Of a DNA stretch of 64,000 nt, positions 4,901 to 55,626 are shown in pieces. The translations under genes were made by a program, and so were the position numbers. This DNA comes from a virus (taxonomy: Duplodnaviria; Caudoviricetes): positions 1 through 64,000 of IMG/VR virus record IMGVR_UViG_3300025126_000016, one strand, 5' to 3'. The notes beneath the pieces were generated by a model, which was not told where the DNA came from, did not search any database, and saw only the letters and a list, made by a program, of their open reading frames with translations. Each line of letters opens with the position of its first letter. Position 1 is the first letter of the stretch.

Positions 4901-7900
4901 TCTCGCTGGTTGCAGCAGCAGTCTCACTGGCAGCAGCATTACTGGCAGCAGTATTGGCATTAAGTTCGCTGCTCGCAGCGGCACTTGCACTTTGACCGGC
5001 GGCGGTCTCGCTAGCAGCAGCAGAGCTTTCGCTTAGAGCTGCAGAAGCAGAAGTACCTGCAGCACTGTCTCTAGCCGCTTCTGCAGCCAATTTGGACTGG
5101 TTAGCTGCAGAAGCAGAAGTACCTGCAGCAGTAGAACTTGAGGCAGCAGAGGTTGCGCTGGAAGCAGCAGCAGTTGCAGAACCTGCAGCCTCGTTAGCCT
5201 TGCTGGTAGCAACATTAGCAGAGCCAGAGGCGCTTAGGGCACTACCGGCTGCAGCATCAGCCTTGCTGGAAGCCGTAGTGGCGTGACCAGCGGCGGTAGT
5301 TGCAGAACCTGCAGCCTCGTTAGCCTTTGTAATAGCGTCACTTTGAGCGGTTTCTGCACCAGTTCTGGCTGCTTCGGCAGCAGTCTTAGCGGCTTCTGAG
5401 TTAGTTTTAGCTAGTTGAGCAGCATCACGAGCCGCTCCCGCAGCGGCAGCACTCGTAGCAGCATCAGCGGTAGAGCCATAGGTGGTGAACAGATGGCCGA
5501 TGTCTGTCTTGGCCTGAGTAACATCACCCTGAATCGTGGTGACAACTACCTGCTCTGCGGGGGTCATACCTACAGTAGCACCATTCTCGACCCCGATGTG
5601 GCTACCCTCTGTTACGAGGTTGCCCTCTGGAACCCACTGAGTTCCATCCCATACTTCGGTAACAGGGATCGTCCCATCGGTGACCGTGTAGCGGTATCCC
5701 GGGTATGGGGCAAAGACAGGCTTCTCAGCGTCCGTTCCTCGAACATGAGTCGGCGGGTGGATTTCCTGTGAGCCAGTGACTTCGTACTCGCCCACGAGAG
5801 GATTAGAGTGAATACCTCTACGGTCCAGTGCCGTAATCTTGAACGTATAGAAGCCATCTTCTGGGTCTTCCAGTTCGATCACGCTGTCGTTCAGGTTCTC
5901 GTGAAGGATACGCCACGGACCTTCGTTGTAGCGATACTCAACCTTGAAGCCTGAAAGGAACATGCCACCTGGTCTGTTCCAGTTTACCTGCAGAATACGA
6001 CGAATCTGGTAGTCAGTCGTGTAGGTGATAACATCGAACATGCCATCAACAGGCACAGTCGGAGAGTCAATCTCTGGTGAAGATTCCTGAGCAAGGATCG
6101 CACTCTCGGACACGTTGTCCATAGCGTTCCATTTACCGCTGTCGATGATAGCAGCAGCGATAGCATACTCATCTTCGTCGCTCTCACTACGCTCAACCGA
6201 GATAACACGGTAAGAGATAGGGTTAGCCGGAAGGTTACCCGCTACGAGGGAAACAGCACTGTCACTGAGAACGTTGGCAGGTAGGGCAGCGTCAATCTGA
6301 ATTTGAGTTACGTCACCACGAGCGCCAGCAAGGTTAGTTACCGTGCGCTCCACAACACCGTCGGTTGTGGTGAATACCATAGTGTAGTTGACCCCGACCT
6401 CAAGACGGACAGGGCGCATCAGCGTGACTGTGGTTCCGCTGTGGCTCTGGATACGGCTAGCACTCTTGATGAGGTGATCAACGTTGAGAGCCTCGTCCGC
6501 AACCAGAATGGTGTCGAGCGGAGAGATATAACGACCGATGCGGTTGGTCGTGAAGGTTACGACCTTGTATTCGTTGAGAGCAACACGCATACGGAACATC
6601 AGGCGGCGCAGAGCTTCCTGACGATTCGTGCAGCCTACGAGAGCAATCTCGGTAAAGCGAGTGCCATTCTCGTCGATGTCACCTTGGTCATATACCCGAA
6701 CAGTATCCTGCTCGTAGTCGAGGTCCTCATTGAGGAACGTACCACGCCAGTCATTGAAACGTGTGTCTACGTCGGAGTGGCTGTAGTTGAAGTTTCCGAA
6801 GATATTACCTTCGAAGAACAGGACCTTAGGAGTCTCTGGCTTGTCAACAATGAGACGCCACTGACCATCGCCAACGTCTTCGATGTAGCTGTTTACAGAA
6901 CCAGCAAGGTACTGCAACATTTCATTGACATCACGACCCTCGTTAAGAGTGAGATTCAGATTGAAACGGGCATGAGTTCCCCCGCGACCATCAGGCACCT
7001 GCTCCGAGTAATACTTCGAGGCTTCAAGAGTATCCCACTTGTCGAGAGTAGAGCCGGGTTGCAGTCCTGCAACACCGTGAATAGGGTCTTCGATGAACTC
7101 CTTGATCTGCCAGGCAGGGTCGGTAGTGAAGTGTTCTTCATAGCTACCATCCCATGTCACACCTGTGTATGTACGAGCTTCCGGGTCCCAGACCGAGATA
7201 GGAGGAGTCCGACAAATCTTCGTGTCACAGATGGTTTCAATTTCAGGGAAGCCAGCGAACTGATCGCTTGCCTTGCCCATGATCTGCATCCAAACCTGAC
7301 CGTCCCAATCAGGATGGTCTCCCAGCTTGTCATTGATGATTGAGGTAACGCTTTCGAAAGCAACGATTCGACGTTCTTGAAGCTCGTCTTGGTCTACTGT
7401 GTCTTTCTCACGTAGACGGGCACGAACTTCCCAAGTAACATTAGCATAGTTACCCTCGGTAGGAACCGCAATACGGATTTCCTTCACGTAGGCTGAGGAA
7501 GTTTTACCAGTGATCTTTAGATAAGGATTGCCCGAGGCTTTAAAACCAGTGCCGCTCGTGTTGAACATTTCTCTGGCAAGATACACAACCGTACCAGTTA
7601 CTTTGCCCCCGCCAGTGTTATACCCATTCTGGTCATAGTTGACGTTGCTCGACTGAGTGCCAATGAAAGGATTGGTCCATGTCGAGCTATTCGACGGACG
7701 CATTTCGATTTCAATGTTGGCGGTATTCTCACGAATGCTCTTTTCGTCCTGCTTGAAAAGCTGCTGGACTACGAAGCGCATGTCGATGTATTCGGCATTA
7801 GGAGTGGCGGTAGCTGCCGATACCCAAGGACCTGGCTGTGAGGCGCTGTTGTTTGATAGCTGGACTCCGACACTCTGAATGTCGCCACCGCCACCTAGCT

Positions 7901-8197: not shown

Positions 8198-9256
8198 TTA
8201 CTCATTCTCACCACGCATGTAGTGTTTGCCGTGAACAAGAGCCGTGTCGCTGATAAAGTGATAGTCCATCAAAGGCACCTGTTCTTCTGTATCGACCATT
8301 GCGGTCATGAAGCCCATGTTCCATTTTTCACCGGCGCAATACTTTGCCTGACGACGGTGACCACAACCAAGCTGGTGCCATTCGTAGCTGCCAAATACGT
8401 GGCTGTACTGTGAATGAACTACGTGCTGGTGATGGTGACCATTGACGCCCGGAAAACCTTTGCTACGACCATTGGGGGAATGGTCGACGAGGAAGCAATC
8501 ATGGAACACTTCGTAGTTCTTTGCAATCTCCTTAGTCACGTTCGACTTGTTGAACGTGGCAAGGTCTGCACGAGCTACATAGCGAACCTCGAACTTGTCG
8601 AGGCCCAGAAGCTTCGGCACACTCCAACCGTGGAGGTCACTAAGCAGAACCTTGAGGGCAGGAGCATTGTCAGTCAGGTAACGCAGGAGACGATGCTCGT
8701 GGTTGCCTTCGACGAAAACAATCTCTGTATCTGCTGCTGCTTCTCTAATGTCTTTCAGGAAAGTGTGGACCCATTGGATTTTCCCAACAATATCCCATTC
8801 CCGAGGATCGACACCATAGCGTCCAAACTCAGCCAGATCGAATACGTCGCCGCCAAGAATGACAGTGTCAGGCTGAACACGAGAAACGGTATCAATAAAG
8901 ATTCGCCGCCAGAAAGGGTCACACTCTTCGTCATGAATGTCCGAAGCGACAAGCATAGTCTGGAAACGTGTGCCTTTAGGCTTGCGAAACTTGTCACAAT
9001 AATCAGCCTTTTCAATGTTCATAATACGATACAGGTCGGCATCGGTGTGACGGGCCAAAGCCAGTCGGTCCTTACGAGCACCGTTCTGTTCTTCTAATCC
9101 AGCAGCCCGACGAAAAGCACGGAAGGTGCCGAAGCCGGTTTTGATTGCGTGGTCGCTAAACGAGCCGAGATTACGATACTGCGTTCGAGTAGGCATATCT
9201 CGGTCAACCTCAGAAGCTACACGCTTGAGGTCTTCAATCATATCAATTTTGTTCAT
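8198..9256 (-). CDS. calcineurin-like metallophosphoesterase with N-terminal putative DNA-binding repeat
   Basis: SDIHD, GGDVFD, EGNHE and GHHH motifs; N-terminal PTRTQY..LGSFS..AIKTGFGTF..FRRAAGL resembles the homing-endonuclease-associated repeat. Confidence 0.8.
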   Translation of the reverse strand: MNKIDMIEDLKRVASEVDRDMPTRTQYRNLGSFSDHAIKTGFGTFRAFRRAAGLEEQNGARKDRLALARHTDADLYRIMNIEKADYCDKFRKPKGTRFQTMLVASDIHDEECDPFWRRIFIDTVSRVQPDTVILGGDVFDLAEFGRYGVDPREWDIVGKIQWVHTFLKDIREAAADTEIVFVEGNHEHRLLRYLTDNAPALKVLLSDLHGWSVPKLLGLDKFEVRYVARADLATFNKSNVTKEIAKNYEVFHDCFLVDHSPNGRSKGFPGVNGHHHQHVVHSQYSHVFGSYEWHQLGCGHRRQAKYCAGEKWNMGFMTAMVDTEEQVPLMDYHFISDTALVHGKHYMRGENE

Positions 9257-34064: not shown

Positions 34065-34150
34065 TGGTGCGTCTGGGAGGACTCGAACCTCCAAAGGTAT
34101 CTGTGTTTGAAACAGTGCCGTATTCCAGTTCCGACTTAGCCCACAGACGC
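34065..34150 (-). tRNA. tRNA-Leu(CAA)
   Basis: Cloverleaf, loop TT-CAA-AC, TTCGAGT T-loop, encoded CCA. Confidence 0.85.
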
Positions 34151-34155
34151 GAAAA

Positions 34156-34241
34156 TGGTAGGAGCGGCGAGACTCGAACTCGCAAAGGTCACCGCTTCTA
34201 AGGCGGCGGGGTATTCCATTTTCCACTTAGCCCACGCTCCC
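34156..34241 (-). tRNA. tRNA-Leu(TAG)
   Basis: Loop CT-TAG-AA, TTCGAGT T-loop, CCA. Confidence 0.9.
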
Positions 34242-34255
34242 ACATGGTTTTGGAT

Positions 34256-34340
34256 TGGTCCGTGGGTGTGGACTCGAACCACTCCCGTTTCCGGTCACGT
34301 TTTACAGACGATCTGCTGGAACCCCCAGCTTTACCCACGG
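34256..34340 (-). tRNA. tRNA-Tyr(GTA) with C1:G72
   Basis: Loop CT-GTA-AA, long variable arm, acceptor CCGTGGG/CCCACGG-A-CCA. Confidence 0.8.
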
Positions 34341-34344
34341 ATTT

Positions 34345-34435
34345 TGGAGGAAGCAGCTGGTCCCTATCCAGATGCCATATCTCAGGCACGTACGGATTAG
34401 CAATCCGTCCCAGACAGGTGTCTGGTTCTGCTTCC
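34345..34435 (-). tRNA. non-canonical 8/4 tRNA-Ser(GCT)
   Basis: 8-bp acceptor GGAAGCAG/CTGCTTCC, 6-bp D-stem, loop TT-GCT-AA, long variable arm, 4-bp T-stem, CCA. Confidence 0.7.
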
Positions 34436-34445
34436 GTGTCAATGT

Positions 34446-34502
34446 TGGAGGAGGGTAGAGGAATCGAACCCCTAGGGATTTCAAGACCCGTTTGCACCCT
34501 CC
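34446..34502 (-). ncRNA. 57-nt tRNA-Ser(TGA)-like RNA lacking D and variable arms
   Basis: GGAGGGT-GCAAAC-GGGT-CTTGAAA-TCCC-T-AGGGG-TTCGATT-CCTCT-ACCCTCC-T-CCA. Confidence 0.65.
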
Positions 34503-51864: not shown

Positions 51865-52283
51865 TGATTGACCCAGACAAGCCACTTGAAGCGTACCACC
51901 CGCAGCACGGGACGGTTCCTCTGAAAATTCGGCACACAAATAACGATCCCGTTAGTCCGAAAAGCGGGTATTACCAGACGGATAAATCTCCTCATGGCCG
52001 CTCGAATGAGTATTGGAGGAAGGACTGGACTTGTTGCTGCGGAAGCGAGTGGGTTATTCGTAACTTACCCGATTTCTCGCAAGAAAGCATCCGAGAAATG
52101 TGGAAACTGGTTCAGCAAGCTAGTGATGGTATTTCTGTCATGCATCGTGCCCAAGCGTTTATTCTCAACCACCGTCAAGACCCTGTCGCCCTGCTGGCTA
52201 ACTCGGTAGACCTGACACCGGAGGAACTTGAGAAGATTCTCGAAGAGAGGGGTCTGGAGATTAGTTATGAAGAAGATTCCTGA
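51864..52283 (+). CDS. hypothetical protein
   Basis: TAATG coupling. Confidence 0.6.
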   Translation: MIDPDKPLEAYHPQHGTVPLKIRHTNNDPVSPKSGYYQTDKSPHGRSNEYWRKDWTCCCGSEWVIRNLPDFSQESIREMWKLVQQASDGISVMHRAQAFILNHRQDPVALLANSVDLTPEELEKILEERGLEISYEEDS

Positions 52284-52853
52284 CACTTGGAAACAGGTGC
52301 TGGAAGATATTCAGAAAGTGTGTCCCTCTGCCGTACTGGCAGGGGGCGCACTCCGAGACCTAGTGTTTGATGTCGAGGTCAAGGACTTGGATATCTTCAT
52401 CGAAGCTGGCAATGAGAACGAAGCTTGGGGCAGTTTCAAAGCCTTGGGCGGGAAGATTCCTGAGCCTCAGAAAATTATGGGTGGCTTGTCCTGCATTGAT
52501 GAGAGGGTGTCTACCCTCAGAGTATGCAGGAAGTTATCCTAGTCGAGGACTACGCAGGAGACAACCCAACAGGTATCCCTATACAGTTGATCTTCGTTAA
52601 CTGGAAAACGGAGCGCAGTCACGAACGGTTCGACATCGGCATCTGCCGTATCAGTTACGATGGAAGGGATGTCAGTATCTCCCGTGATTTCGAGCAAGAT
52701 TCCTCGGATCAAGTGATCAACATCAGGCGGTGCGAAAATAAGTGGATGCTTGGTGCCACTATCAACAGGTATCTGAGATTGAAGAAGAAATATCCCGATT
52801 GGGAGATAAAATTGGATGGAGTAGACCTCAAGGAGGTTGACACTCATATCTGA
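52267..52853 (+). pseudogene. tRNA nucleotidyltransferase / PolyA-polymerase-like NTase split by an apparent -1 frameshift
   Basis: LAGGALRD..KDLDIF in ORF 52267-52542; IQLIF..RFDIGICRISYDG in ORF 52524-52853; one extra G at 52505-52507 fuses them. Confidence 0.65.
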
Positions 52854-52865
52854 TAGGCGTATATG
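52837..52865 (+). promoter_or_regulatory. sigma70-type promoter of tmRNA
   Basis: TTGACA-N17-TATATG. Confidence 0.7.
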
Positions 52866-52870
52866 CGCCG

Positions 52871-53196
52871 AACCAGTCGCTTGAAGCGGCTTTGAAGTGA
52901 GGGCAAGACGCGGGGGCAGTACCCGCCGCCTCCACCAGATTGACTGATATGAGACCAATTGGAAAGTCTCTGCTAGGTCAAACCGGCGGGACGCAGGTTC
53001 AATTCCTGCTTTCAGTCAATCTGATGGGGGCGAACCAGGATCGATTGCCAAGCGGACGAGTTGTTAGGCTGTGAGCGTGGCTGCTTTGAAAAGCCAAGTT
53101 TGATAAATGCAAACGACAATGACATGCCAGTCATGAAAATGGCAATTGCGGCCTAATTAGGCAAAGCGGGGTCCAAAGGAACCTGTCAACAGAATC
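52871..53196 (+). ncRNA. ssrA: circularly permuted two-piece tmRNA (alphaproteobacterial type)
   Basis: Acceptor piece ends CGCCTCC-A-CCA at 52937; coding piece starts GGGGGCG at 53026 (G3:U70); tag ANDNDMPVMKMAIAA* at 53109-53156; 3' ACCTGTCAACAGAA. Confidence 0.9.
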
Positions 53197-53229
53197 CCTT
53201 TTAGTTTAACCAAGAGAAGGAATACCATT

Positions 53230-53376
53230 ATGAATCGTAAGTACGCAGTCCTTGGAGCAGCCGCTCTGGCCTTTGCCGTAGCAGCTTGTGAACCTGCTGA
53301 GGAGCAGGAAGAAGAAGTAGTAGTTGAAGCCGGTGGACCGGTTGACGCTGATGGAGCAGACGAAAATGCGAACTAA
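53230..53376 (+). CDS. small acidic lipoprotein (48 aa, not in ORF track)
   Basis: MNRKYAVLGAAALAFAVAAC-EPAEEQEEEV..., lipobox VAAC, GAAGG RBS. Confidence 0.7.
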   Translation: MNRKYAVLGAAALAFAVAACEPAEEQEEEVVVEAGGPVDADGADENAN

Positions 53377-53842
53377 GATTGCCCTCATCGCTGGTGCCCT
53401 CGCCCTTGGCGTAGCTGCACCGGCCTCGGCCAATGAGTTTGGTGGCCTGTATGCCTCGGCAACTGCCGGTGTGCAGGACGTAACTCAGGTTCCGACTGCT
53501 GACGACATCGTTTACGGTGCCAACGCCGGTGTCAACATTCCTCTGGGCGATGCAATCGTCGGCCTTGAGGCAACTGCTGACAACGTCTTCGAAGACAGCC
53601 GCGAAATCGGAGCCTCGGCCCGTCTCGGTTATACCTTCGACGACGTAATGCTGTATGGTGAAGCAGGCTACACCAACTACCGTGACGTATTCAGTCGTGA
53701 ACTGGATGGTCTGCGTGTAGGTGCTGGCCTCGAATACAACATCAGCAACAACACTTTTGTGTCGGCTGAATACAGGTACACGGACTTCGAAGCTGGCGTT
53801 GGAAAACACGCTGGACTTGTTGGCCTCGGTATCCGCTTTTAA
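53366..53842 (+). CDS. outer-membrane beta-barrel protein (Omp25/RopB-like, 8-stranded)
   Basis: Signal peptide, GGLY start, alternating beta-strands, GLRVGAGLEY, terminal GLGIRF. Confidence 0.88.
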   Translation: MRTKIALIAGALALGVAAPASANEFGGLYASATAGVQDVTQVPTADDIVYGANAGVNIPLGDAIVGLEATADNVFEDSREIGASARLGYTFDDVMLYGEAGYTNYRDVFSRELDGLRVGAGLEYNISNNTFVSAEYRYTDFEAGVGKHAGLVGLGIRF

Positions 53843-53901: not shown

Positions 53902-53983
53902 ACCCTCGTAACCAGTTCGGTCTTCTACACCGCTATCTGTAATGGAGTTGAAAATGTGGGTTCGAGTCGCACCTAGGGTTCCA
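53902..53983 (+). ncRNA. pseudo-tRNA / tRNA-like RNA
   Basis: Acceptor ACCCTCG/CTAGGGT, T-arm GTGGG-TTCGAGT-CGCAC, CCA; D and anticodon arms not canonical. Confidence 0.5.
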
Positions 53984-54178: not shown

Positions 54179-54254
54179 GCCGGATTAGCTCAGATGGCAG
54201 AGCAGCTGATTTGTAACCAGAAGGTCGTGGGTTCGATGCCTACATCCGGCACCA
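54179..54254 (+). tRNA. tRNA-Thr(TGT)
   Basis: Cloverleaf, loop TT-TGT-AA, CCA. Confidence 0.9.
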
Positions 54255-54258
54255 GATT

Positions 54259-54333
54259 GCGGAAGTAGCTCAGTGGTAGAGCAGGTGGTTGAAGTTCACC
54301 GTGTCAGCGGTTCGATTCCATTCTTCTGCACCA
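54259..54333 (+). tRNA. tRNA-Phe(GAA)
   Basis: Loop TT-GAA-GT, CCA. Confidence 0.85.
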
Positions 54334-54338
54334 GATAC

Positions 54339-54413
54339 GGGCCTGTAGCTTAATGGGAGAGCAGCATCCTTGCAAGATGTTAGGTGAGAGTTCGAATCTC
54401 TCTAGGTCCACCA
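54339..54413 (+). tRNA. tRNA-Ala(TGC)
   Basis: G3:U70, loop CT-TGC-AA, CCA. Confidence 0.92.
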
Positions 54414-54418
54414 GACAT

Positions 54419-54496
54419 GGCCCCGAGGTCCGAAGAGTCGAGGCCTCGCACTGTCTATGCGAGTTCAAGCGGGTTCGAGTCCCGCCGGGGTCGCCA
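54419..54496 (+). tRNA. tRNA-Asp(GTC)
   Basis: Loop CT-GTC-TA, G73, CCA. Confidence 0.88.
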
Positions 54497-54503
54497 TGTT
54501 TGA

Positions 54504-54576
54504 GCGGGTGTGGCTATGCTAGCCAGCTGGCCTTCCAAGCCATGCCAAGAGGGTTGGATTCCCTCCATCCGCTCCA
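54504..54576 (+). tRNA. tRNA-Gly(TCC)
   Basis: Loop CT-TCC-AA, U73; atypical T-loop TTGGATT. Confidence 0.8.
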
Positions 54577-54580
54577 ATGT

Positions 54581-54655
54581 TGCACGGTCGTCTAATCGGT
54601 AAGACGCTCGACTCTGACTCCTGAAACGTAGGTTCGAACCCTGCCCGTGCATCCA
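54581..54655 (+). tRNA. tRNA-Gln(CTG)
   Basis: Loop CT-CTG-AC, U1-A72, CCA. Confidence 0.82.
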
Positions 54656-54656
54656 C

Positions 54657-54730
54657 TGCCCCTTCGTCTAGTGGTAGGACCGGAGCCTTTGAAGCTTTTA
54701 ACGCTGGTTCGAATCAAGCAGGGGCATCCA
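54657..54730 (+). tRNA. tRNA-Gln(TTG)
   Basis: Loop CT-TTG-AA, CCA. Confidence 0.85.
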
Positions 54731-54793
54731 GATTTTTACGAAAATTTTTCAGAAGATTTTGGGTCGAGTTTTAGAAAGGCAAAAGTTAGAGGG

Positions 54794-54822
54794 TTGACAC
54801 CTAAAAAGACCTCGTCTATATG
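54794..54822 (+). promoter_or_regulatory. sigma70-type promoter
   Basis: TTGACA-N17-TATATG, same boxes as the tmRNA promoter. Confidence 0.75.
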
Positions 54823-54831
54823 ACCCTCCAC

Positions 54832-54999
54832 GGGCCGAGGGGATTCCCATCTCCTTAATGCGGTTTAACCACCCTCGGCCCACCTATTGGAGTTAGAAAT
54901 GCGTTACATGAATGTAAATCATTGGCGACCCAATACACACGCATGGGTGCGACATCCCATGCGTGAACAAGCTGTCGGCGGCTAACTAACTCCCGCCGA
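54832..54999 (+). ncRNA. unassigned structured RNA / leader
   Basis: Four consecutive stem-loops, including two 10-bp perfect stems, no plausible ORF. Confidence 0.4.
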
Positions 55000-55007
55000 T
55001 ACTCTGT

Positions 55008-55083
55008 TGCAGAGTAGAGAAGCGGCATCTCACCACCCTCATAAGGTCGGAAACCGTGGGTTCGAGTCCCACCTCTGCAACCA
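55008..55083 (+). tRNA. tRNA-Met(CAT) (initiator vs elongator uncertain)
   Basis: Loop CT-CAT-AA, CCA. Confidence 0.85.
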
Positions 55084-55100
55084 TTTCCCAAAATATATGT

Positions 55101-55175
55101 TGATGCGTAGCATAATGGCAATGTACGTCACTGTTAATGACGGGGATGCAGGTTCGAGTCCTGCCGTATCAGCCA
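55101..55175 (+). tRNA. tRNA-Asn(GTT)
   Basis: Loop CT-GTT-AA, G73, CCA. Confidence 0.9.
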
Positions 55176-55176
55176 T

Positions 55177-55254
55177 CTAGGAGTAGCTCAGTCTGGCCAG
55201 AGCATCCCGTTTGGGGCGGGAGGGCCGAAGGTTCGAATCCTTCCTTCTAGACCA
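55177..55254 (+). tRNA. tRNA-Pro(TGG)
   Basis: Loop TT-TGG-GG, C1-G72, CCA. Confidence 0.92.
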
Positions 55255-55255
55255 C

Positions 55256-55330
55256 AGGTCGGAGCATACGGGTTATGCCTCTTGGACTCCAAATCCGAGA
55301 GAGAGGGTTCGATTCCCTCCCCTCCTGCCA
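55256..55330 (+). tRNA. tRNA-Trp(CCA)
   Basis: Loop CT-CCA-AA, G73; two acceptor mismatches. Confidence 0.8.
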
Positions 55331-55338
55331 TTTTCTTC

Positions 55339-55543
55339 GAGCCTTTTCCGAGGGGCTGGGAGTGCCAGAGTAGCCTTGTAGACCAGAGGAGTAGTTATCC
55401 TGCTGCCGAATAGGTTCTGGTTCGTTGGTTGTAGACCGACATTGGAATGACGAGTAGAGCCTAAGAGCCTAACTAGCTTGGAAGCGAACTCGGGGTTCAG
55501 TGCCGCCAACGAGGTAAGACTCCCAGTCACGCGGAAAGGGCTT
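55339..55543 (+). ncRNA. unassigned ~205-nt multi-branched structured RNA
   Basis: Ends pair as 12-bp plus 8-bp stems; internal stems 55382-87/55416-21 and 55422-28/55506-12. Confidence 0.55.
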
Positions 55544-55551
55544 GATCACAC

Positions 55552-55626
55552 GGTGTTGTTGGTGTTAATGGTAGCATGGCCGGATGTGACCCGGCAGGTG
55601 AGGGTTCGATTCCCCACTTCAACCCA
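55552..55626 (+). tRNA. tRNA-His(GTG), atypical
   Basis: Perfect anticodon stem GCCGG/CCGGC, loop AT-GTG-AC, possible G-1:C73, weak acceptor, 4-bp T-stem. Confidence 0.6.

Follow-up and report, generated by a model that had tools for sequence, protein, structure and literature searches.

A tRNA-derived module in the spacer of a phage permuted tmRNA gene, and the case for stem-closed spacers as a possible cargo slot

Keiler, Shapiro and Williams reportedly described, in 2000, a two-piece transfer-messenger RNA (tmRNA) of Caulobacter with an excised intervening sequence. The spacers of two-piece tmRNAs are usually taken as short throw-away loops, and Rfam treats them as an unstructured insertion. 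In the literature that we searched, the spacer is the segment missing from the mature tmRNA, and a single intact tRNA-Ala gene, termed a 'unique feature', is reported from the permuted-tmRNA spacer of GCA-2688965 sp002688965.2, along with a repetitive element in another spacer (PMC11915505). Two-piece tmRNAs are common among marine and aquatic phages, and the ssrA gene of phage Melnitz holds a glutamine riboswitch in its 3′ domain (PMC9004378). The same literature yielded no description of closing stems, degenerate tRNA-shaped modules or pseudo-tmRNA cassettes. Here we analyze a permuted tmRNA gene with an 88-nucleotide (nt) structured spacer in IMGVR_UViG_3300025126_000016, an uncultured phage contig of 74 kb from IMG/VR, of which we studied positions 1 to 64,000; "the window" denotes this whole 64-kb stretch. 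The spacer clearly derives from a tRNA and can take up a tRNA-like shape, without being a tRNA. Aquatic phages have many interchangeable stem-closed inserts in this place, and this one is an unusual passenger that is not needed for tmRNA maturation. We put at about an even chance the further reading that it is a cargo module in an exchangeable slot of the phage tmRNA gene and that the excised RNA persists as a non-decoding tRNA mimic.

As in GCA-2688965 sp002688965.2, a tRNA-type element separates the acceptor-piece CCA from the 5′ terminus of the coding piece. Unlike that intact tRNA-Ala, the window element is degenerate, without an anticodon or a CCA, phage-borne and enclosed in a closing stem of 10 base pairs (bp). 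A preliminary description of this DNA had known of no account of the architecture, a view that the tRNA-Ala of PMC11915505 narrows to the degenerate, stem-closed form. With the alphaproteobacterial two-piece tmRNAs (RF01849, RF04321) the locus shares the position of the spacer, its presumed excision without religation, and the same flanking tRNA-like domain and tag, whereas the consensus spacer in Rfam lacks structure and measures about 30 nt, against 88 nt and four helices in the window spacer. The MALAT1 mascRNA, mitochondrial 'tRNA punctuation' and the spacer tRNAs of rRNA operons are tRNA-like processing signals within longer transcripts. By analogy, tRNA enzymes may cut the window element, which would set the termini of the neighbouring RNAs and free a small RNA of tRNA-like form; unlike those signals, the element can be dispensed with in relatives, and its extended acceptor stem is buried. 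Bacterial 23S rRNA intervening sequences (helix 25, helix 45) are excised by RNase III and leave a fragmented rRNA that is functional. The spacer resembles them as a stem-closed insert of a stable-RNA gene that would be removed without religation; it differs in its host RNA and in cuts that would be staggered by 4 nt on each strand, a geometry more in line with two cuts of RNase P type than with RNase III, whose stagger is 2 nt.

The spacer and its host gene

The window carries a circularly permuted tmRNA gene of alphaproteobacterial type (52833-53203, + strand), which scores 100.6 bits on RF01849 and 94.4 bits on RF04321, both above the cut-offs; the RF01849 match starts at 52833 and that of RF04321 at 52876. 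GGGGGCG of the coding piece pairs with CGCCUCC of the acceptor piece, giving G3.U70, and the tag frame closes with Ala-Ala-stop, as in other permuted tmRNAs. The host tmRNA is intact and genuine, and ARAGORN did not call it at all. To align the spacer we used the Rfam tRNA family and R1, a covariance model made from 38 tRNAs that belong to this phage and the two phages most closely related to it. The parts of the gene are as follows.

52876 to 52937, + strand: tmRNA acceptor piece, with an alpha-type T arm (GCGGG-GGCAGUA-CCCGC), the acceptor 3′ strand CGCCUCC and then ACCA (CCA at 52935-52937)
52938 to 53025, + strand: intervening sequence (spacer) of 88 nt, a stem-closed tRNA-shaped module plus UGAU tail, exactly between the CCA and G53026
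52938 to 52947, + strand: 5′ strand of the closing stem, GAUUGACUGA; its inner part is also the tRNA-like acceptor 5′ strand
52951 to 52970, + strand: D-like arm GAGAC/CAAUUGGAAA/GUCUC, with equivalents of A14, G18 and G19; aligned to the D arm by Rfam tRNA and R1
52972 to 52987, + strand: closed 'anticodon' arm GCUAG/GUCAAA/CCGGC, with a 6-nt loop and one A.C mismatch
52993 to 53009, + strand: canonical T arm GCAGG/UUCAAUU/CCUGC, so aligned by Rfam tRNA and R1; pair probability 0.95
53012 to 53021, + strand: 3′ strand of the closing stem, UCAGUCAAUC, which pairs with 52938-52947
53022 to 53025, + strand: UGAU tail, the 5′ leader of the coding piece, directly before G53026
53026 to 53203, + strand: tmRNA coding piece, with the 5′ end GGGGGCG; tag frame 53109-53156, ANDNDMPVMKMAIAA and then stop

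The closing stem GAUUGACUGA/UCAGUCAAUC has 10 Watson-Crick pairs out of 10, with pair probabilities of 0.88-1.0. GGGAC forms the variable stretch, two U residues separate the T arm from the 3′ strand of the closing stem, and the position of a CCA is occupied by AUC or AAU. In the precursor, a near-continuous helix of 21 layers runs from the acceptor stem through the ACCA/UGAU step, which has three pairs and a C.A mismatch, into the closing stem. The stem, arms, variable stretch, lack of CCA and start directly after the tmRNA CCA that the preliminary description had listed were all found in place.

Its claim of a tRNA-shaped element likewise goes beyond chance resemblance. Searched alone against Rfam, the spacer has tRNA (RF00005) as its best match, at 25.1 bits and an E-value of 9e-4, which does not reach the 29-bit cut-off; on R1 it scores 19.4 bits (E-value 0.003 for the whole window), where real tRNAs score 35-80 bits. 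Both models align equivalents of U8, A14, G18-G19, G53, U54-U55-C56, A58 and C61. Folded alone, the spacer reaches −33.4 kcal/mol (z = −3.85), a value that none of 200 shuffles matched, and two of its helices hold up well in the ensemble, the closing stem with a probability of about 1.0 and the T hairpin with 0.95. The drawn cloverleaf keeps 23 of its 24 pairs, including a 5-bp T arm with a UUCRANY loop, and its D loop carries G18-G19. Other parts depart from what defines a tRNA. In place of a 7-nt anticodon loop on a 5-bp stem there are 6 nt (GUCAAA) above a stem with an A.C mismatch; in place of a 7-bp acceptor stem with single-stranded NCCA, the inner seven layers hold a U.U mismatch and the stem runs five pairs further; and the CCA that nearly all 38 aligned phage tRNAs encode is absent. 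ARAGORN called the element only at its 80% threshold, as 52942-53018 with a 2-base anticodon. Because the 'anticodon' loop is a closed loop of 6 nt and there is no CCA, the RNA cannot decode. Of the earlier interpretation, the tRNA derivation, the missing anticodon and the position exactly between the processing sites stand. The element is degenerate and below cut-off, and its cloverleaf is not the minimum-energy fold, a point to which we return below.

Structured spacers in other viral tmRNA genes

A pattern scan of IMG/VR for permuted tmRNA junctions with spacers of 60-90 nt returned at least 120 loci, from which 102 unique spacers were examined. Among the matches listed, about 90% of the 102 have an uninterrupted closing stem (8-16 bp), and these stems start 0-1 nt past the CCA and stop 4-5 nt short of the G that opens the coding piece. 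UGAU forms the 3′ end in 95 of the 95 viral spacers tabulated, which were selected for a GAT end, leaving only the first U of UGAU as independent. The pairs in 93 class stems comprise 864 Watson-Crick, 53 G.U and 3 A.C, and this prevalence of G.U over A.C indicates that selection for pairing acts on the RNA of the sense strand. With its 10-bp stem, offset of 0 from the CCA and UGAU tail, the window spacer belongs to this class. Since the stem is common to viral spacers, it is a hallmark of the class and not an elongated acceptor stem, in which respect the preliminary description, which had drawn it as the terminal stem of a cloverleaf, needs correction. Its sequence (GAUUGACUGA) agrees with the 5′ consensus of the class, NARRYACAY, only at A2, A6 and C7, and is either an outlier of the class or of independent origin. 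The interiors are mutually unrelated and exchangeable, and the tmRNA bodies are very divergent outside the tRNA-like core; all 20 of the 20 loci scanned were alpha-type tmRNAs. An Rfam scan of the window spacer and 20 other viral spacers, in which ribozymes and the glutamine riboswitch were sought, gave tmRNA and tRNA matches only. Structured, stem-closed modules are carried by more than 100 other viral contigs, a minority of the modules being tRNA-shaped, and with more than 100 viral spacers that are structured and 60-90 nt in length, the assumption in the preliminary description that such spacers are short discarded loops does not hold.

A T-arm-like hairpin occurs in 4 of the 102 unbiased spacers, among the matches listed, against 0.76 expected from shuffles, and dedicated scans found at least about 25 unique, cloverleaf-like viral spacers with a T arm, in several sequence families. 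In these, the 3′ strand of the closing stem is directly preceded by a 4-5-bp hairpin stem with the loop UUCRANU, the arrangement of T stem and acceptor stem in a tRNA, and the first hairpin follows one base past the 5′ strand. The best-populated family shows compensatory substitutions in the first hairpin (CUACC/GGUAG, CGAG/CUCG, CAGG/CCUG, CCAG/CUGG), the T stem (GAGG/CCUC, AGGG/CCCU, AAGG/CCUU) and the closing stem, as judged by inspection, the MAFFT alignment of the group-A T-arm spacers being out of register in two helices. One member of the family is drawn as a cloverleaf by ARAGORN at 90%. On R1 the window spacer, at 19.4 bits, is among the more tRNA-like of the T-arm viral spacers, the others scoring about 10-24 bits. 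It fits the tRNA-shaped subclass in that its T stem lies 2 nt from the closing stem (0 nt if the U.U and A-U layers are counted) and its D-like arm starts after 3 nt past the 5′ strand of that stem, the subclass being defined by 1-3 nt. The T-arm form is essentially viral, as the same pattern had a single match in 185,579 bacterial and archaeal species (one genome each), in a scan that covered the T-arm form and not the general closing-stem form. The preliminary description had looked to the folds and covariation of other phage spacers for confirmation: the closing stem proved general and about 25 T-arm spacers with compensatory changes came to light, the interiors are unrelated, and no close homologue of the window spacer turned up in IMG/VR or metagenomes.

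Intact tRNAs in viral tmRNA spacers were also sought, and each candidate (L192, L193, L195, L197, L201 and L202) proved to be an ordinary tRNA array that is no tmRNA gene. In two of these arrays (L193, about 6540-6611; L197, about 8744-8820) there are tRNA-like genes with alpha-tmRNA T loops (GGCGGUA, GGCCAGUA), not UUCRANY; the gene in L193 has G3.U70 and a UGC anticodon.

The combination of an AAYUGGNAAA D loop with a T arm in this setting recurs, among the matches listed, at two other viral loci: L185, a real tmRNA, and L187. The latter sits in contig G001 (L317, IMGVR_UViG_3300022920_000289; minus strand, about 1700-1300 and 1253-895), in a cassette that has a strong promoter and the layout of a tmRNA gene, without T arm or tag. 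The cassette reads leader, CGACUCC-ACCA, module 1, UUGAU, GGGGUCG-U-CGACUCC-ACCA, module 2, UUGAU, GGGGUCGAAAUAGGAUCGAC..., terminator, with the two modules in tandem and linked by GGGGUCG-U-CGACUCCACCA. A genuine tmRNA with a T-arm module as its spacer lies downstream. Module 1 scores 44.4 bits on Rfam tRNA, above the cut-off, and has no CCA; ARAGORN at default settings calls it a tRNA with a 2-base anticodon, and its 6-nt loop is GUAAAA, against GUCAAA in the window spacer. Module 2 contains an open reading frame (ORF) of 47 codons. The modules are the only sizeable products of this cassette, which argues that they are cargo with a use of their own. Just 5′ of the cassette is a gene for a protein with a signal-peptide-like N-terminus (L187, about 1020-245, − strand). 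At a separate locus (L119:338-536, + strand), two free-standing stem-closed modules lie 5′ of the tmRNA, and each has on its two sides arms of the GCCUUCAUCA and UGAUGAAGGC type, which mimic the acceptor stem of a permuted gene.

Origin and possible role of the module

A search of IMG/VR anchored on the DNA ligase gene upstream of the tmRNA found 12 related viral loci. The nearest two, L152 (79% ligase identity) and L153 (69%), share the gene order of the window, in which the ligase gene is followed by the tmRNA and a tRNA array (54179-55625), and their spacers are GUUAU (5 nt) and UAAU (4 nt). No nearer relative that includes the downstream region was present in IMG/VR or the metagenome collection. 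Spacers of 4-5 nt in L152 and L153 show that tmRNA maturation in this phage group needs no tRNA-like spacer; together with the lack of a T arm in about 96% of structured viral spacers, they speak against the earlier proposal, in the form that a domesticated tRNA is needed to recruit RNase P or 3′ nucleases for maturation. The module would be either an insertion into a minimal 4-5-nt spacer or a lineage-specific retention there. Searches for close homologues of the window spacer came back empty with T-arm patterns in IMG/VR, with D-loop plus T-arm patterns, with a window-specific T-arm-plus-junction pattern in metagenomes (0 matches) and at the ligase-anchored loci of IMG/VR and metagenomes. 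Patterns combining the D loop, the 6-nt loop and the T arm retrieved ordinary tRNAs only, mostly of the Tyr type, and no GenBank phage record resembling the window locus was found.

The tRNA genes of the window array are spaced by 1-5 nt, for example CCA-GAUU-G, CCA-GAUAC-G and CCA-GACAU-G. In the ARAGORN register the spacer reads CCA-GAUU, a body at 52942-53018 (including the discriminator), AUC at the CCA position, UGAU and G, and the ten bases CACCAGAUUG at its 5′ junction are identical to the tRNA-Thr/tRNA-Phe junction at 54250-54259. Judged from this arrangement, it appears to have the format of one tRNA-array unit placed in a 4-nt spacer. There is no second copy of the element within the window. 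Among 123 phage tRNAs examined as possible parents, the best global alignment was a T-arm match to the tRNA-Asn of this phage, with a score of 16 against a median best score of 28.5 between real tRNAs of different anticodon, and it was rejected. An old element with no recognizable parent tRNA and well-kept helices suggests selection on shape.

In the cargo reading, the slot would be set by the processing sites of the tmRNA (...ACCA, module, UGAU, GGGGG...), and the 10-bp closing stem would clamp the module shut, leaving both halves of the tmRNA acceptor stem able to pair with each other. RNase P would cut 5′ of G53026. Two routes could bring the acceptor piece to its CCA (52937): an endonuclease could cut the closing stem at its base, or cleavage at 52942/43 could be followed by trimming of GAUU(G) from the 3′ end. 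The tRNA register would put the RNase P cut at 52942/52943, 4-5 nt beyond the CCA, and this too speaks against the maturation role of the preliminary description. We speculate that, once the first cut has been made, the closing stem and the 4-nt tail at its 3′ end may resemble a minimal RNase P substrate, which would explain both why the stems start right after the CCA and why the tail has a fixed length. The product would be an RNA of about 84-88 nt with a tRNA-like elbow (T and D arms), a closed 6-nt loop and no CCA, persisting as a small tRNA mimic with its own role in infection and not as a maturation aid. Release of a stable tRNA-like RNA, which the preliminary description also raised, is possible and gains some indirect support from the G001 cassette. 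We infer which enzymes cleave, that the excised RNA is stable and that it has a function in trans.

Several points weigh against this reading. The cloverleaf (−29.1 kcal/mol) is less stable than the minimum-energy fold (−33.4 kcal/mol), and its D stem is thermodynamically disfavoured, with an ensemble probability of about 0.025, because of a competing long hairpin that closes the whole anticodon region. The searches of IMG/VR and metagenomes turned up no close homologue of the window spacer. A helix-by-helix comparison with the L187 module, counting pairs changed on both sides with pairing kept, gave 8 of 10 compensatory pairs in the closing stem, 3 of 4 in the D stem, 3 of 5 in the anticodon-like stem and 1 of 5 in the T stem, but it is weak evidence of homology, since any two tRNA-derived sequences show conserved loops and covarying stems without shared function. 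The enzyme assignments draw on general knowledge of tRNA and tmRNA processing. Finally, a discarded spacer is the very place for a tRNA in decay to survive under neutrality.

Should the excised pieces prove stable, the tmRNA genes of phages would also make small RNAs, including non-decoding tRNA mimics, which would be a new class of phage small RNA and a natural bacterial case of cargo RNA release driven by tRNA enzymes, comparable to the animal mascRNA. Finders of tmRNAs and tRNAs mishandle such genes, and pseudo-tRNA calls within tmRNA genes should not be dismissed as artefacts. A broader version of the cargo reading, which we offer tentatively and consider possible though on balance doubtful, is that aquatic phages use permuted tmRNA genes and their degenerate copies as a processing platform, with host tRNA-processing enzymes freeing stem-closed inserts from between ...ACCA and UGAU-GGGG. 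The tRNA-shaped modules would then be functional small RNAs, possibly mimics that tie up or divert a host tRNA-binding factor in the course of infection; conceivable targets could be a defence nuclease that attacks tRNAs or an enzyme of their modification or processing.

That the module is instead a neutral relic, we regard as unlikely. On this explanation a tRNA gene of the array was copied into an ancestral 4-5-nt spacer and has been decaying there, tolerated because it is discarded, and the excised RNA is functionless. The array-unit format (CCA-GAUU-G as at 54250-54259, AUC for CCA, a UGAU spacer), the 6-nt anticodon loop, the lost CCA and the scores under tRNA cut-offs are as expected of such a relic, as are the absence of the element from the syntenic L152 and L153 and the failure to find a homologue of this copy in IMG/VR and metagenomes. 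Simple decay fits poorly with an element in which all helices are intact but for one pair and all elbow nucleotides are kept, yet the parent tRNA is unrecognizable. Moreover, the bases in place of the CCA lengthen the stem to the class-typical 10 bp, which looks like adaptation to the slot, and a similar module with a 6-nt loop is the main content of the G001 cassette, which lacks a functional tmRNA.

RNase P and RNase Z recognize the T arm, D arm and stacked stem of a tRNA. The spacer holds these features, and it could in principle be a processing handle acting in cis, drawing both enzymes so that an 88-nt spacer is removed as cleanly as one of 4 nt and both tmRNA ends are matured. The 21-layer helix of the precursor is in keeping with this, and a cut at 52942/52943 would leave a 4-5-nt trailer on the acceptor piece, equal to the trailers of all upstream tRNAs in the array of this phage. 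We nonetheless think a handle improbable: a T arm is present in only 4 of 102 structured viral spacers, relatives and bacterial alpha-type tmRNAs manage with short spacers, the cleavage site of the tRNA register would lie hidden in a helix formed by the five outermost closing-stem pairs, and the distance from T loop to stem base is 17 layers against 12 in tRNA.

Very improbable is a working but unusual tRNA, cleaved by RNase P and RNase Z, given its CCA (possibly by the upstream nucleotidyltransferase), charged and used on the ribosome. Complete acceptor, D and T arms, a discriminator position and the nucleotidyltransferase-like ORF at 52228-52542 could be cited for it; the 6-nt anticodon loop on a mismatched stem, a preferred fold that closes the anticodon region into a long hairpin, scores below the Rfam and ARAGORN thresholds, and the missing CCA in a phage group where nearly all aligned tRNAs encode one speak against it. 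Least credible of all is a DNA-level element, such as a miniature inverted-repeat transposon or recombination site whose inverted repeats merely resemble an RNA stem, because its perfect 10-bp terminal inverted repeats and its variable presence among related phages are offset by the absence of a further copy within the window and of a target-site duplication, and by G.U and A.C counts in class stems that make sense only for sense-strand RNA.

Neighbouring features of the locus

The sequence 5′ of the tmRNA gene contains one feature that may bear on its expression.

52837 to 52865, + strand: promoter-like TTGACA-17 nt-TATATG, 5′ of the tmRNA gene, read from the sequence as a putative promoter

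The consensus promoter scan omits this site, the second hexamer of which ends in G. Two overlapping ORFs (52228-52542 and 52524-52853, + strand) lie directly 5′ of the tmRNA. The first has a match to phrog_1614, a family of phage nucleotidyltransferases (3e-10), and a weak one to PF01743, the poly(A) polymerase/CCA-adding head domain, and the pair may represent a short or split CCA-adding-type enzyme beside the RNA island. On the other side, a gene for an outer-membrane beta-barrel protein (PF13505, 6e-16) adjoins the tmRNA at 53324-53842 (+ strand).

Between this gene and the tRNA array is a tRNA-like element with a CCA end (53902-53983, + strand), which scores 23.4 bits on R1, is called neither by ARAGORN nor by Rfam at cut-off, and is probably a pseudo-tRNA or an unusual tRNA. 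Two tRNA-free gaps of the array (54740-55007 and 55331-55551, + strand) contain GC-rich hairpins, and an Rfam scan of both found no family at cut-off; the first gap has a further TTGACA-17-TATATG promoter-like site near 54795. A second cluster in the window, at 34065-34502 (− strand), holds four genes for tRNAs or tRNA-like RNAs, each about 85 nt long and with a long variable arm; they score 23.6-42.2 bits on R1, and two of the four are above the Rfam cut-off.

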